DNA of 64,000 nt from Candidatus Saccharimonadota bacterium. Its GTDB lineage: Bacteria; Patescibacteriota; Saccharimonadia; Saccharimonadales; UBA10212. A model generated the notes under the pieces. It worked only from the letters and a program-made list of their open reading frames with translations, was not told the DNA's origin and searched no databases. Below, piece after piece: positions 3,360-62,238 of this stretch. The stretch lies in contig JACDFN010000001.1 in the NCBI GenBank assembly GCA_013815775.1, positions 109,883-173,882 of the forward strand, given 5' to 3'. Position 1 is the first letter of the stretch. Each line of letters opens with the position of its first letter. The position numbers and the translations under genes were made by a program.

Positions 3360-4107
3360 TAGGTCAATGCAAACAAACGGGCTTCAACGCTATAAGGAAT
3401 TTAAATTTGCGTTAGCAAGCTACAGGATATCCGAACGTGCTAAAAGTGAAATTACTGACTTACGGTTAGTACTATTAATTGCTCCAACATCGGGGGGTCG
3501 CAATACCATAATCCGTCGTTTACTTACCGATGGCGGATATCACTACATTGTCTCTGACACTACCCGCAAACCGCGAATTAACGATGGAATTCTTGAACAA
3601 AATGGCAGAGAGTATTGGTTTAGGACAGAGGAAGAAATGCTAGCAGATCTTCAAACCGGTGAATATCTGGAGGCTGAGCTTATACACGGCCAGCAAGTGT
3701 CAGGCATCAGTATTCGTGAGTTAAAAAAAGCAAAGAAGCAAAACAAAATTGGAATTACCGATATTGACCTTGACGGTGTCCATAACGTTATAAAAGTTAA
3801 ACCCGATACTATTATAATCATGATTTTGCCGCCAAGTTTTGATGAATGGCAGAGAAGGATAGCTCGAAGGGGGCATATGAGCGGGCAGGAGTATATAAGA
3901 AGACTTCAAACAGCCGACAAGATATTCTCTGACGGCATTAAGAACAACTTTTACCACTTCCTTATATCGGAAAATGTAGAACAATCAGCTTCAATTATCA
4001 ATTCAATAGTCGAGGGTGGGCGTAATCCCCACCAAGATCGAGGCCGCTCTTTACTGAGCCAACTTCAAAGTCATTTACAAGAAAAACTCCTTGAACCCAG
4101 TAAATAA
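3352..4107 (+). CDS. Guanylate kinase-like paralog with degenerate Walker A
   Basis: SDTTRKPRINDG..GREYWF and ITDIDLDG blocks of the Gmk fold; P-loop reads APTSGGRNT (no Lys); ATG 3352 overlaps upstream stop (ATGAATAA). Confidence 0.5.
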   Translation: MNNRSMQTNGLQRYKEFKFALASYRISERAKSEITDLRLVLLIAPTSGGRNTIIRRLLTDGGYHYIVSDTTRKPRINDGILEQNGREYWFRTEEEMLADLQTGEYLEAELIHGQQVSGISIRELKKAKKQNKIGITDIDLDGVHNVIKVKPDTIIIMILPPSFDEWQRRIARRGHMSGQEYIRRLQTADKIFSDGIKNNFYHFLISENVEQSASIINSIVEGGRNPHQDRGRSLLSQLQSHLQEKLLEPSK

Positions 4108-11955: not shown

Positions 11956-12016
11956 GGGCTTGGAAGAGCAGTGCCGGTTCGACAAAGTCGAGTCCCGATT
12001 AATTCGGGAAAGCACC
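11956..12016 (+). ncRNA. Orphan copy of the three-way-junction RNA element (not followed by a tRNA)
   Basis: GGAAGAGCAG box, P1 GTGC 11971-74/GCAC 12012-15, P2 TTCGAC-AAA-GTCGAG, P3 CCCGA-TTAAT-TCGGG. Same architecture as the elements at 52210 and 26941. Possible promoter TTAGAT-17-TAGTAT at 11917-11945. Confidence 0.4.
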
Positions 12017-12056
12017 ATAAGATACCCTGGAAGAGTGTCTCATAATGCGTGGCCGT

Positions 12057-12740
12057 TTATCGGCTCTGCATAGCATCTAGCAGAACGGCCATTACCATCC
12101 AGGCTCGCTCATCAAGAACATCTATCGCCCCTTCGTCTAAGTGAAGGGCGTAATGATCCCGAATGGTTGTAATCTTTGTGTACTCTCCTACAATCTTATC
12201 GCCGGACTTTACAGAAAAATGGAATTTAAGAGGGAAGGGCATAATCTCAGAGATAAAAGGAATAAATTCCCAGGCTCTCCTGGCGATTGCTATAGCAGGG
12301 CTTTTCTCGCTGATTGTAAACACAGTAGCTTTCATTTGTTTATCGTAGATAGTCCACGAACTTACCAGCAATGACTTTTTAAACTCCTTTTTTAATACTG
12401 CCAGTGGTTTCTGGTTATCATCAAATACATCAAAAGTCGGGCTAAGGTCCATTATTGAGCGAGCTTTAGATGCCACGAGAACTTGAGTCTGGGTTTCATC
12501 TCTAAAAATAGTGAACTGCTCTCGAAGAGCCAATCTTTTTTGCTTAGCGTAGCCGCAAACTTTTTGTTCTAAATCCTCATCCTTTAAAATCACATATTCA
12601 TTAGCGAGCATGGTGATTTTTTGGTGTACTTCAAATAGCTTCGTCATGTCCTCTAGTGTAACACCGCCAAAAAAGCGCCAAGTGTTATTTTCGCTTTTGT
12701 TTTCTGGGTTTGTCTGGTCGAATAAAGCGGTGATATCCAA
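12057..12740 (-). CDS. Hypothetical protein, possibly scramblase/LURP-one-like (tubby-like) fold
   Basis: 227-aa ORF. Family resemblance rests on weak pattern recognition only. Start may be internal (M32, 12647) because 12740 overlaps the upstream gene by 56 nt. Confidence 0.35.
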   Translation of the reverse strand: MDITALFDQTNPENKSENNTWRFFGGVTLEDMTKLFEVHQKITMLANEYVILKDEDLEQKVCGYAKQKRLALREQFTIFRDETQTQVLVASKARSIMDLSPTFDVFDDNQKPLAVLKKEFKKSLLVSSWTIYDKQMKATVFTISEKSPAIAIARRAWEFIPFISEIMPFPLKFHFSVKSGDKIVGEYTKITTIRDHYALHLDEGAIDVLDERAWMVMAVLLDAMQSR

Positions 12741-26731: not shown

Positions 26732-26859
26732 ACTTACCCTTCTGGTTAATCGTCACTAGTATTGTACTACGATGAGTATGGGAGTCTCTCATTGCAGCAA
26801 GAGATGAGTATGAATTAATAAAAATGACTCCAGTTTCCTGAAGCCATAATGCTTATGCT

Positions 26860-26934
26860 TGGTAGCGGGGACAGGACTCGAACCTGCGACCTCGTGGTTA
26901 TGAGCCACGCGAGCTGCCACTGCTCCACCCCGCG
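26860..26934 (-). tRNA. Initiator tRNA-fMet (anticodon CAT), CCA encoded
   Basis: 5' CGCGGGGTGGAGCAG as in bacterial initiators; position 1:72 unpaired (C1 x U72); anticodon arm CGTGG-CTCATAA-CCACG. Confidence 0.85.
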
Positions 26935-26940
26935 ACAAAC

Positions 26941-27041
26941 TTTGAAGGACAACCAAGGTTTTCCTTCAACGCCGCTTCTGGAATGAATCCAGATTCGCCT
27001 AGCGGCGAACCGCGACTGCTACCTTTCCTTATAGCGATAGC
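26941..27041 (-). ncRNA. Three-way-junction RNA element forming the 5' leader of tRNA-fMet
   Basis: Read on the minus strand: GCTATC..GGTAGC hairpin, AGCAG, P1 GTCGC/GCGGC, P2 TTCGCC-GCTA-GGCGAA, P3 CTGGA-TTCAT-TCCAG, P4 TTGAAGGA..TCCTTCAA ending 7 nt before the tRNA. Confidence 0.5.
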
Positions 27042-27055
27042 TAAGGCAAGGAGGT

Positions 27056-27084
27056 ATTTTAATCTGTTATAAGGTGATTGTCAA
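27056..27084 (-). promoter_or_regulatory. Promoter of the leader-tRNA-fMet transcript
   Basis: Minus strand TTGACA (27084-27079), 17 nt, TAAAAT (27061-27056). Confidence 0.6.
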
Positions 27085-27116: not shown

Positions 27117-27144
27117 TTGACATATATATAAAAACGTGTATAAT
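27117..27144 (+). promoter_or_regulatory. Consensus sigma-70-type promoter of a short stand-alone transcript
   Basis: TTGACA 27117-27122, 16-nt spacer, TATAAT 27139-27144. Confidence 0.65.
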
Positions 27145-27317: not shown

Positions 27318-27365
27318 AGTAGGTTCTCATCTGTTAATGTGCTATAATTCCAGCGTTAAAAGCAC

Positions 27366-27442
27366 GGCAGCGTAGCTCAGTTGGTTAGAGCGCAGGACTC
27401 ATAAGCCTGAGGTCGCAGGTTCGATCCCCGCCGCTGCTACCA
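27366..27442 (+). tRNA. tRNA with anticodon CAT (elongator Met or Ile2), CCA encoded
   Basis: GGCAGCG-TA-GCTCAGTTGGTTAGAGC..CTCATAA..GGTTCGATCC; my hand fold shows G1-U72, A31-G39 and one T-stem mismatch. Confidence 0.8.
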
Positions 27443-52175: not shown

Positions 52176-52204
52176 TTGGTAGTATATTTGTCGTCTGCTA
52201 TAAT
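52176..52204 (+). promoter_or_regulatory. Promoter of the leader-tRNA-Pro(UGG) transcript
   Basis: TTGGTA 52176-52181, 17 nt, TGcTATAAT ending 52204. Confidence 0.6.
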
Positions 52205-52209
52205 TACCC

Positions 52210-52317
52210 CTGTTGCAGTTCTTTTTTAGGGAAAGGTAGCAGCCGCGGTCCGCCATAGGCGGATTCGGATTCATTCCGAAAGCGGCGTTGAAGGAAACCC
52301 GCATGGTTGTCCTTCAA
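52210..52317 (+). ncRNA. Three-way-junction RNA element forming the 5' leader of tRNA-Pro(UGG)
   Basis: P0 CTGTTGC/GTAGCAG; P1 GCCGC 52242-46/GCGGC 52282-86; P2 TCCGCC-ATA-GGCGGA 52249-63; P3 TCGGA-TTCAT-TCCGA 52265-79; P4 TTGAAGGA 52288-95/TCCTTCAA 52310-17. Confidence 0.5.
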
Positions 52318-52324
52318 GGTAGTT

Positions 52325-52401
52325 CGGGGTGTAGCGCAGTTGGCTAGCGCACCGCGTTTGGGACGCGGGGGTCGAAGGTTCGAGTCCTTTCACCCCGACC
52401 A
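52325..52401 (+). tRNA. tRNA-Pro (anticodon TGG), CCA encoded
   Basis: Acceptor CGGGGTG/CACCCCG; anticodon arm CCGCG-TTTGGGA-CGCGG. Confidence 0.92.
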
Positions 52402-52445
52402 TAAAAATTTACGCCGCATAACGTACATTGCTATAAACTTGTTAT

Positions 52446-53273
52446 ATGCCTTTTGAAAAGACCATTCGGTCACTTCCGAAAGCCGCTAGAAATGCCTCAT
52501 CAGCAGCCCGCCAGGGTCTTGGCGCGCTAAGAAGTGATAAAGCAATAGTGGTTTATCCATTGTTTGTTTTTATATTGGTTCTGGGAAGTTTAGCTGTTGT
52601 CAACGACTTGATATCATCAGCTACAACCTCTCTTGCTCAAGAATCGTTGTTTGGGCCAGAGCAGTATCTTGCGTTTTTATTTTTCGGAATTACTTCGATT
52701 ATATTATTTTATATATATCTAGCGGTTATGACCGGTTGCTTTACCTGCGTGGTGGCCGCCTCGGTTATGGCTCAGCTGGACGGACATCCAACACCACTAC
52801 TTCGGGGAATAAAAGTGGTTTTAAATCGATTGCCACGGATAGCCGCGTTTTCAGCCTTATCGATTTTTTTTATCCCGCTTGGGTTGATAGCCCAACGAAG
52901 TAAAGTACAAAGAAAACCACACGATGCAATTGGCAGCTCCTTTTCTTTAAACATGGCTCAACTAGCTCCTGCCATACTTTCGGGTAATAAAGGGGTGTTT
53001 GAAACAATCAGACATTCCGTTAACGTCATGGGAGAAGCCTGGAAAGAAAATCTTATGATTAAAGCATCGATGTATGGATTTATAATTTTTCTAGGATTGG
53101 TCAGTTTTCTACCGGGTTACATTGAGCGAAATTGGTTCGATAAAACTTCTGCTGGCACCATTAGCTGGCTGGTAAGCGTAATTTTATTAATATCATTTCT
53201 GATCATGACCAGAGTATTGGCTAGTGTGTTCACCGCCACCCTTTACTGGAGACTGACTAAAAGTAGAACATAA
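52446..53273 (+). CDS. Hypothetical integral membrane protein (275 aa)
   Basis: Six or so TM segments; TATAAA 52432-52437 lies 8 nt upstream of the ATG. Confidence 0.5.
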   Translation: MPFEKTIRSLPKAARNASSAARQGLGALRSDKAIVVYPLFVFILVLGSLAVVNDLISSATTSLAQESLFGPEQYLAFLFFGITSIILFYIYLAVMTGCFTCVVAASVMAQLDGHPTPLLRGIKVVLNRLPRIAAFSALSIFFIPLGLIAQRSKVQRKPHDAIGSSFSLNMAQLAPAILSGNKGVFETIRHSVNVMGEAWKENLMIKASMYGFIIFLGLVSFLPGYIERNWFDKTSAGTISWLVSVILLISFLIMTRVLASVFTATLYWRLTKSRT

Positions 53274-53360
53274 ATGGCGCACTCGGTGAATCCAGTTTAG
53301 AATCTCTTCCAACTGCCCGAATGCGCCAATTAAAAAGTGATTATGCAAAACTGTTTTCGC

Positions 53361-53419
53361 CCAAAACCGGCTTTGCGTCTCTGCGGGCGCCCGCCATCGC
53401 CCGCAGTCGGCTCAAAGCC
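53361..53419 (-). terminator. Compound hairpin terminator downstream of tRNA-Pro(CGG)
   Basis: Minus strand GGCTTTG..CTGCGGGCG-atggcggg-CGCCCGCAG..CAAAGCC followed by GGTTTTGGG. Confidence 0.45.
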
Positions 53420-53438
53420 GAAATTGAAAATTCTCTTT

Positions 53439-53516
53439 TGGTCGGGGTGAGAGGACTCGAACCTCCGACCTCAGCGTCCCGAACGCTGCGCGCTAGCCTG
53501 GCTGCGCTACACCCCG
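53439..53516 (-). tRNA. tRNA-Pro (anticodon CGG), CCA encoded
   Basis: Acceptor CGGGGTG/CACCCCG; anticodon arm CAGCG-TTCGGGA-CGCTG; short unstructured leader, unlike the UGG isoacceptor. Confidence 0.92.
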
Positions 53517-56796: not shown

Positions 56797-56871
56797 GTAC
56801 CCCAGGAGGGATTCGAACCTCCGGCCTTGACGTTAGAACCGTCTTGCTCTATCCACTGAGCTACATCCGCC
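56797..56871 (-). pseudogene. Chimeric tRNA-like gene: tRNA-His 5' end fused to a decayed tRNA-Arg(TCT)-like body
   Basis: 5' GGCGGATGTAGCTCAGT identical to tRNA-His; anticodon loop GTTCTAA; T arm and 3' acceptor (GGTTCGAATCCCTCCTGGGGTACC) resemble the genuine tRNA-Arg at 61791; 5' GCGGATG cannot pair with 3' CTGGGGT; no CCA. Confidence 0.6.
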
Positions 56872-61943: not shown

Positions 61944-62004
61944 ATAACAGGGGTGATTATAACAGATATATATTCAAAGTCTAAAGCCACTAAATAAAAA
62001 GCCA

Positions 62005-62040
62005 AAACAAAACGCACCAGTTACCTGGTGCGTTTTAGCT
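62005..62040. terminator. Bidirectional rho-independent terminator
   Basis: AAAA-CGCACCAG-ttac-CTGGTGCG-TTTT; on the minus strand followed by TTTTGTTTTGGCTTTTT. Confidence 0.65.
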
Positions 62041-62064
62041 TTTACTAAAATTTAAGGCTTAAAA

Positions 62065-62238
62065 TTAAGCGCTAAAAATTCTAGCTGCTACAGTTCGAGC
62101 TAAAGTGATAACTGTAATAGCTACCCCTAAAGTCAAAATAGCTAGCGTTATTGCTATAGATAGCTTGCTACCGCCAGTGCTAGGCAGTACAGCAACTGAA
62201 CCAGCTGCTATTGAAGTACCGAGTACGGATCCATACAT
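62065..62238 (-). CDS. 57-aa ORF consisting essentially of an LPSTG cell-wall sorting signal
   Basis: Hand-translated MYGSVLGTSIAAGSVAVLPSTGGSKLSIAITLAILTLGVAITVITLARTVAARIFSA; RBS AAAGGAG 7 nt upstream; own terminator; below the ORF-track cutoff. Confidence 0.5.
   Translation of the reverse strand: MYGSVLGTSIAAGSVAVLPSTGGSKLSIAITLAILTLGVAITVITLARTVAARIFSA

Follow-up and report, generated by a model that had tools for sequence, protein, structure and literature searches.

Within the 64-kb window (the whole stretch of DNA analyzed here), a tRNA-Met(CAT) gene that very probably encodes the initiator tRNA lies on the minus strand behind a leader of ~115 bases, which comprises a promoter-proximal stretch and a folded module of ~90 nt. 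Read in the direction of transcription, the locus contains the following features.

27079..27084 (-): -35 hexamer TTGACA of the tRNA-fMet promoter; a homologous promoter is found at locus L019, which has no element
27056..27061 (-): -10 hexamer TAAAAT of the same promoter, after a 17-nt spacer; 11 of 12 consensus positions
27030..27055 (-): variable promoter-proximal stretch of the leader, ACCTCCTTGCCTTAGCTATCGCTATA, not conserved between the window copies
27029-26942 (-): conserved element, fMet copy
27016..27029 (-): block A, AGGAAAGGTAGCAG, purine rich and nearly invariant
26971..27016 (-): three-way junction, P1 around P2 and P3, with compensatory changes in all three helices
27016-27012 / 26975-26971 (-): helix P1, 5 bp
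27011 and 26977-26976 (-): junction nucleotides G and AA, respectively, with none between P2 and P3
27010-26993 (-): hairpin P2
26992-26978 (-): hairpin P3, loop UUCAU
26942..26969 (-): hairpin P4, UUGAAGGAAAACC / GGUUGUCCUUCAA, 12 bp with an A-G mismatch
26935..26941 (-): 7-nt tail AGUUUGU from P4 to tRNA +1, the putative RNase P site
26860..26934 (-): tRNA-Met(CAT), very probably the initiator, called by ARAGORN and Rfam
26824..26847 (-): terminator-like hairpin and T-run 3' of tRNA-fMet

The predicted promoter (TTGACA-ATCACCTTATAACAGAT-TAAAAT) lies where the initial annotation had placed it (27084-27056, minus strand). A promoter scan of the 800-nt tRNA-fMet region returned three promoter-like sites, versus 1.6 expected from shuffled sequences. 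The element had been described as starting within about 8 nt of the -10 hexamer, but the stretch common to both type A copies of the window begins at 27029-27031, 26 nt past it, and the intervening nucleotides (27055-27030) differ between copies. This variable part would contain the transcription start and, in our structural model, may include the 5' strand of a weak candidate helix, P0, whose mate is block A. The reported 7-nt gap between the element and tRNA-fMet holds when it is counted from the end of P4 (26942); conserved sequence (CAAAG) extends to 26940. Tails after P4 measure 4 to 13 nt in the other copies.

The tRNA (26934-26860) combines a C1xU72 mismatch, an A11:U24 pair, an encoded A73-CCA, and two of the three canonical G-C pairs of the anticodon stem, with U29-A41 in third place, and its very probable identity as the initiator is based on these features. 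No terminator-like site was found between element and tRNA, either here or in the tRNA-Pro(TGG) copy of the window, which indicates that element and tRNA form one transcript.

Facing away from the tRNA-fMet promoter is a plus-strand promoter (27117-27144, TTGACA-16-TATAAT, 12/12 consensus), which precedes another tRNA(CAT) gene, at 27366, by some 220 nt. A hairpin (AAACAGCCTA...TAGGCTGTTT) plus T-run lies between this promoter and that gene, so that a separate small transcript may exist. The second tRNA(CAT) (27366-27442, plus strand) is conserved at L012 (1565-1641) and L013 (59-135). Because of this conservation, and because its L012 counterpart is located immediately 5' of tilS, it is probably tRNA-Ile2 (read after lysidine modification) and not elongator tRNA-Met.

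Copies of the element and their settings

A BLAST search of the leader against the window retrieved a copy at 52227-52340 (plus strand) in the leader of tRNA-Pro(TGG), with 80.9% identity over 115 nt (E=2e-24). The two copies lie 25 kb apart in the same layout, and the 18-mer AAGCGGCGTTGAAGGAAA occurs twice in the window, versus 0.02 occurrences expected. A search with the structural model added a third copy.

52176..52204 (+): promoter TTGGTA-17-TATAAT (with TG) of the second copy; 10 of 12 consensus positions
52210..52324 (+): second (type A) copy with tail, running into tRNA-Pro(TGG)
52210-52216 (+): 5' strand of P0, CTGTTGC
52228-52242 (+): block A
to 52317 (+): junction and P4
52318-52324 (+): 7-nt tail, GGTAGTT
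52325-52401 (+): tRNA-Pro(TGG)
11961..12046 (+): third, diverged (type B) copy without a downstream tRNA; 37 bits, E about 1e-6

The type B copy occupies a 162-nt spacer between convergent genes, after the LOR gene; the same spacer is 0 to 1 nt long in relatives. No promoter above the scan threshold accompanies this copy. A weak model match at 62005-62091 (15 bits) was taken as noise. Immediately 3' of the type B copy (12048-12096, plus strand), intergenic CGTGGCCGTT forms a 9-bp hairpin with the last codons of the convergent LOR/YxjI gene, followed by ACCA. A tRNA-like acceptor minihelix ending in ACCA was considered and rejected, as ACCA and one strand are set by conserved LOR codons, and the likeness is probably a coincidence.

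Further copies were found by pattern scans and by look-ups of neighboring genes. A metagenome scan with the pattern AAGGTAGCAG..TTCAT..GTTGAAGG gave nine loci, two of them real, and a genome scan with GAAAGGTAGCAG..GATTCATTC gave two loci. These patterns were too strict (the L016 copy carries GGTAGTAG, and type B diverges more), so that the total sample of nine copies underestimates both distribution and copy number. The copies outside the window are as follows.

L013: tRNA-fMet leader of another Saccharibacteria genome
L004: tRNA-Pro(TGG) leader
L016: tRNA-Pro(CGG) leader
L014: start only, at a contig end, downstream of RNase Y
L023/L024: diverged, without P2, before tRNA-Pro(CGG)
L012: without a tRNA, beginning directly after the ftsH stop codon on the opposite strand
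L003: 3' end of a group I intron in the 23S rRNA gene

The initial annotation had pointed to one promoter-element-tRNA architecture at unlinked loci serving two tRNAs (fMet and Pro[TGG]). The same layout recurs in L013, L004, L016, and L023 with no terminator between element and tRNA, and a promoter lies directly upstream of the element in every tRNA setting. In L012, the ftsH-ruvB spacer that holds the element is ~376 nt long, versus 32 nt in the window, and the copy has a weak promoter of its own (TTAACT-18-TACAAT, 9/12). Neither stand-alone copy (L012 and window 11961) is followed by a terminator.

The group I intron of L003 is recognized by its Rfam model (E=1.6e-5) through the conserved GAAGAUAUAGUCC and P9, up to position 4005. 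The element fills the 125 nt between the end of the model and the 23S exon GAACGUGCGUGAGACAG; the exon sequence directly after it, GAACGUGCGUGAGACAGUUCGG, belongs to the peptidyl-transferase region. As the closest named homologues of one L003 protein are from TM7/Saccharimonadales, the host appears to be a Saccharibacterium as well. The L003 copy (4000-3880, minus strand) is bracketed by a direct repeat of 7 nt, AAAGCTT, that is self-complementary as well. The two repeats can pair to give an 8-bp stem that closes the element beside the 3' splice site, and the repetition creates two candidate AAAG/CUU splice sites.

The downstream flanks of all nine copies begin with CG followed by a G-rich run, within 4 to 13 nt of P4. 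RNase Y and other proteins encoded in the window carry the annotation Candidatus Saccharibacteria / Saccharimonadales. All copies sampled so far come from Candidatus Saccharibacteria, and they fall into at least two subtypes (A and B). No match to the element was found in viral contigs (two patterns), a phage collection, or a plasmid collection.

The element is a folded RNA under selection

Single-sequence folds of the fMet and tRNA-Pro(TGG) copies of the window take the same shape (z = -3.3 and -4.0, respectively), in which a purine-rich block, (A/G)GGAAAGGUAGCAG, stands 5' of P1 and one G separates the three-way junction from P4. In most other copies, block A forms the 3' strand of P0 and pairs with CUGUUrC, the short leader normally found 3' of stable-RNA promoters in this clade. 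These promoters have a common TATAAT-yACCCCTGTTnn directly 5' of the tRNA and an ATCTGTT motif that recurs upstream or downstream of the -10 hexamer (window 61944-61975, 52199-52216, and 27320-27365; L016, L014, L004, and L013).

When the seven type A copies are aligned, pairing is retained at 95.5% of pair positions, P1 to P3 contain 10 compensatory pairs, and no shuffled alignment scored as high. An alignment of all nine copies gave 94.5% paired positions and compensatory changes in 21 of 29 pairs, distributed over all four helices. The nine copies were fitted to the model, which favors the structure, and the decisive control is therefore the sliding of registers by 1 to 3 columns, on which pairing falls to 35 to 55%. 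P4 does not vary among type A copies, and type B copies show covariation in it. On the tRNA strand, G-U pairs outnumber A-C mismatches 10:1, which identifies this strand as the one that folds. In three copies (L003, with 8 bp, L004, and the tRNA-Pro copy of the window), the nucleotides immediately upstream of the element could base-pair with its 3' tail.

Type A copies from fMet leaders, Pro leaders, the intron, and a stand-alone site all carry block A, GGAUUCAUUC, and P4 unchanged, and these segments stay fixed where the adjoining tRNA-Pro genes are down to 76% identical. Since the helices are compensated while these blocks are unchanged, selection acts on the RNA, and the copies are not a dead insertion in decay. 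Compensatory changes in four helices, the invariant blocks, and unalignable flanks also bear out the earlier view that the fMet copy is not the remnant of a local duplication.

The element failed the tests for every named family tried and belongs to a family undescribed so far. Only tRNAs reach the gathering score of Rfam 15 in the window, and at E values up to 10 nothing credible was found on either type A copy or on the type B copy of the window. Known small self-cleaving ribozymes (hammerhead, twister, twister-sister, pistol, hatchet, hairpin, and HDV-like) gave no match within the same limit. A degenerate tRNA or tRNA-like structure was dismissed because ARAGORN and RF00005 matches begin only at 26934 and 52325, and a T-box or terminator-type leader switch because there is neither a T-box match nor a terminator before the tRNA. 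The window copies are not introns interrupting a gene: the downstream tRNAs are complete, a promoter and not an exon lies upstream, and the group I core (RF00028, P3-P8) has no match in the window. In L003, that core lies upstream, apart from the element. Resemblances to SRP RNA, RNase P RNA fragments, and an L11-binding-site mimic are short and without a model match. Protein coding was rejected, as most frames contain stops, no frame is open in all of the copies, and the copies differ in length by numbers not divisible by 3. None of the literature searched describes the element. Two recent studies on introns and rRNA insertions of this phylum do not mention it (PMC13011429, PMC11270868), and its sequence is absent from the rRNA-insertion supplement.

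Element-free sites and the relation to tRNA

The tRNA-fMet of L019 is identical to that of the window at all 75 positions and is preceded by a homologous promoter (TTGACA-AAAACCCGATAACAGAT-TAGAAT), but the distance from the -10 hexamer to the tRNA is 20 nt and there is no element, as judged by direct reading against element-bearing leaders. In L013, the element starts directly after CGACGA, the sequence that abuts tRNA +1 in L019; as CGACGA is common to both, the two loci differ by a clean indel at the leader/tRNA boundary. Short element-free leaders also precede tRNA-Pro genes in L015, L017, and L025 to L028, the TGG gene in L016, and the window's own CGG gene. With filters off, 90 kb from five other Saccharibacteria loci contained no copy, versus three in the 64-kb window.

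The element is thus dispensable for the tRNA, and a need for it in cis is disfavored because an identical tRNA-fMet exists without it. The initial annotation had regarded the element as a functional module in tRNA transcripts and had counted orthologous loci that lack it within conserved surroundings as evidence against this proposal. L019, with its homologous promoter and identical tRNA, is such a locus, and the element-free tRNA-Pro loci and the tRNA-less copies (L003, L012, and 11961) also speak against a module serving tRNA transcripts as such. A selected, folded RNA is what survives of the functional module; an obligatory tRNA-serving role does not.

Nevertheless, all seven leader copies, of both subtypes, precede tRNA-Pro or tRNA-fMet, and in the window two of three C1 tRNAs carry the element versus none of the six others. 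tRNA-Pro and tRNA-fMet are the two kinds of tRNA in bacteria that start with C1 (C1:G72 or a C1 mismatch), and their 5' halves are very similar. The restriction reflects either a function tied to these tRNAs or recombination channeled by similarity. Resemblance among copies tracks neither locus nor host, as the window fMet copy is nearest to the tRNA-Pro copy of L004 (88%), with tRNA-Pro genes 76% identical. This pattern, patchiness, and filled and empty sites are the behavior of something copied between sites.

In the tRNA-Pro/RNase Y neighborhood (window 52325-53516, L015, L016, L017, L023, L025, and L027), the order and orientation of tRNA-Pro(TGG), tRNA-Pro(CGG), and a 275-aa membrane ORF by RNase Y vary among close relatives, and, depending on the genome, the element precedes either the TGG or the CGG gene. 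This variation indicates repeated rearrangement or conversion between tRNA-Pro genes. Two other unusual tRNA-like sequences were encountered. At 56798-56870 (minus strand) of the window, a sequence scoring 36.7 bits in Rfam and not called by ARAGORN has a 5' half like tRNA-His, a 3' half like tRNA-Arg(TCT), unpaired acceptor strands, and a TATAAT promoter of its own; it resembles a chimeric tRNA pseudogene or recombination scar. In L017 (4724-4920, minus strand), a partial tRNA-Pro (5' two-thirds), preceded by TATAAT-CCTATCTGTTGC, lies upstream of tRNA-Pro(TGG), and its T-loop holds an unrelated, structured-looking insert of ~110 nt with no match to the element model.

Function, alternatives, and nearest known systems

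The reading that we favor, tentatively and with somewhat less than even confidence, is a self-contained folded RNA module of about 90 to 120 nt that resides in the discarded parts of stable-RNA precursors, is freed by RNase P, and functions as the released RNA. At 27055-26935, the module would account for almost the entire 5' leader of the precursor of initiator tRNA. It would be transcribed from the tRNA's own strong predicted promoter, and RNase P cutting at tRNA +1, 7 nt past P4, would yield a discrete small RNA of ~115 nt. The tRNA-Pro copy would be released in the same way, and the L003 copy would exit 23S rRNA with the group I intron. The leader copies have the layout expected for RNase P release, with their own promoter, a tRNA directly downstream, and no terminator between. 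The freed fragment would accumulate and act in trans, most likely by binding a protein or another RNA via the invariant block A, P3 loop, and P4. A co-produced small RNA had been among the roles initially suggested and is still the best reading, with release deduced from the layout. The element is independent of the tRNA, given the element-free L019 and the tRNA-less copies at L012 and window 11961-12046. Its patchy presence (0 copies in 90 kb of other loci) is unexpected for a host-useful RNA, and if the module is purely a passenger, its restriction to tRNA-Pro and tRNA-fMet has to be put down to history or to recombination between their similar 5' halves.

Patchiness of this kind would be natural for a selfish repeat, a small nonautonomous mobile or duplicative element without host benefit, whose fold (as RNA or single-stranded DNA) serves its own spread and which survives in harmless sites such as tRNA leaders, an intron tail, and the spacers of convergent genes. 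We regard this as unlikely, though it is the alternative that deserves most weight. It fits the filled and empty sites at four kinds of locus (fMet leader, tRNA-Pro leaders, ftsH-ruvB spacer, and post-LOR spacer), the contrast between 3 copies in 64 kb and 0 in 90 kb of relatives, the similarity of copies that matches neither locus nor host, and conservation that is strongest at both ends of the element. However, four helices kept by compensatory change imply long-term selection in place instead of neutral decay. The 7-nt direct repeat AAAGCTT around the L003 copy could be a target-site duplication; none was seen at the other copies, and there is no consistent target motif. The insertions at L012 and window 11961 also exceed the element in size. 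A miniature inverted-repeat transposable element (MITE) would be multicopy with filled and empty orthologous sites, as here, but the complementarity of the ends is no better than in shuffled controls in any of the nine copies. No transposase or OrfB/TnpB domain was found in 20 of the larger ORFs of the window or among the genes called at the comparison loci, and the phage, plasmid, and viral-contig collections lack the element.

Alternatively, the element could be a cis-acting leader that aids C1-starting tRNAs by presenting C+1 to RNase P, protecting the 5' end, or preventing misfolding of the G-rich acceptor strand. RNase P relies more on leader contacts for pre-tRNA-fMet. The confinement of all seven leader copies to tRNA-fMet and tRNA-Pro, with none before other tRNAs seen, the short constant tail to +1 (7 to 9 nt), and the pairing of P0 with the standard CUGUU leader are consistent with such a role. 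It is nonetheless improbable, given the identical tRNA-fMet of L019, the window tRNA-Pro(CGG), and many orthologues that do without the element, as well as copies that have no tRNA (L003, L012, and window 11961). Moreover, recombination via similar tRNA 5' halves could yield the bias without any function.

Quite improbable, in our estimate, is a mobile structured RNA of a new kind, catalytic or guide-like, that places itself at RNA-processing boundaries, namely, the -1/+1 junction of C-starting tRNAs (Pro and fMet) and, in a group I intron, the 3' splice junction.

The intron setting raises a further, very doubtful origin, in which the element derives from a 3'-terminal peripheral domain of a group I intron or from a guide scaffold of the IStron or IS605/IS607 type, and the leader copies are relics or reused scaffolds. 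In the guide version, the scaffold would end at the exon boundary and the flank would be the guide. The L003 element fills exactly the 125 nt from P9 (4005) to the 23S exon, the 3' end of IStrons also carries an omega-RNA scaffold (10.1101/2023.11.20.567912), and the pairing of 5' flank with 3' tail (8 bp in L003; also in L004 and the window tRNA-Pro copy) has a place in this scheme. On the other hand, there is a single intron case, the window copies have no intron core, the 5' flank has no conserved motif, and compensatory changes would not persist in a relic. No tnpB, tnpA, or homing-endonuclease gene was found near any copy or among the 20 larger window ORFs scanned.

A new class of self-cleaving ribozyme, liberating the RNA that follows, is extremely unlikely. 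The compact multihelix fold with invariant unpaired nucleotides, the position beside RNA ends that must be generated, the patchy multicopy distribution typical of small ribozymes, and the precedent of tRNA-adjacent theta ribozymes (PMC10879173) are compatible with it, but no Rfam ribozyme matches at E values up to 10, the junctions are nearly without unpaired nucleotides, and nucleotides past P4 are not conserved. RNase P, in addition, already accounts for the tRNA 5' end.

Saccharibacteria are ultrasmall episymbionts whose strongly reduced genomes contain hardly any spare DNA. Given such reduction, junk is an unlikely explanation for an RNA of 100 nt that is kept folded, multiplied, and placed behind the strongest promoters. 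Should the released leader work as a small RNA, it would rank among the earliest regulatory or structural RNAs to be defined in the candidate phyla radiation (CPR) and would be a bacterial case of a second RNase P product from a tRNA gene. A selfish element, for its part, would reveal the places in a minimal genome where such sequences can hide. The placement of leader copies before tRNA-Pro and tRNA-fMet alone and the association with the tail of a group I intron provide testable handles on tRNA 5' processing in the phylum, and the covariance model can be used to annotate loci that now read as unexplained long leaders.

Several known systems share features with the element. Correia/NEMIS, ERIC, RUP, and BOX are transcribed intergenic repeats that fold as RNA and consist of long imperfect palindromes with terminal inverted repeats. 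Like them, the element is ~100 nt long, multicopy, present or absent between relatives, and cotranscribed with its neighbors, whereas its three-way junction plus hairpin, lack of inverted ends, and structural selection set it apart. The P9.1/P9.2 extensions of group I introns (RF00028) occupy exactly the place of the L003 element, between P9 and the 3' exon. In contrast to these extensions, the window copies have no catalytic core and do not lie inside a gene, and the element is far more conserved than the usual peripheral intron helix.

In IStrons, the 3' end of the intron holds an omega-RNA scaffold of consecutive stem-loops with a pseudoknot to the scaffold 3' end (10.1101/2023.11.20.567912). 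The series of stem-loops ending at the boundary between element and flank resembles omega-RNA scaffolds of IS605/IS607 elements and IStrons, but the element has no TnpB/TnpA gene nearby, no left end, and no adjacent motif. Theta (HDV-like) ribozymes, which lie downstream of phage tRNAs and trim their 3' ends (PMC10879173), are likewise small structured RNAs abutting tRNA genes. The element differs from them in its position upstream of the tRNA and in having neither an HDV-like fold nor an Rfam match.

Small RNAs cut from tRNA precursors, with RNase P ending the upstream RNA, include MALAT1/mascRNA, bacterial tRNA spacer-derived RNAs, and the products of plant tRNA-snoRNA genes. As in these cases, a structured non-tRNA RNA shares the promoter and transcript of a tRNA, and its end would be set by tRNA processing. 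Those RNAs come from single loci and are tied to their tRNA, whereas the element is multicopy, is optional, and occurs also without a tRNA. By analogy, the module would work most like the small RNAs that share a tRNA transcript and are ended by tRNA processing.
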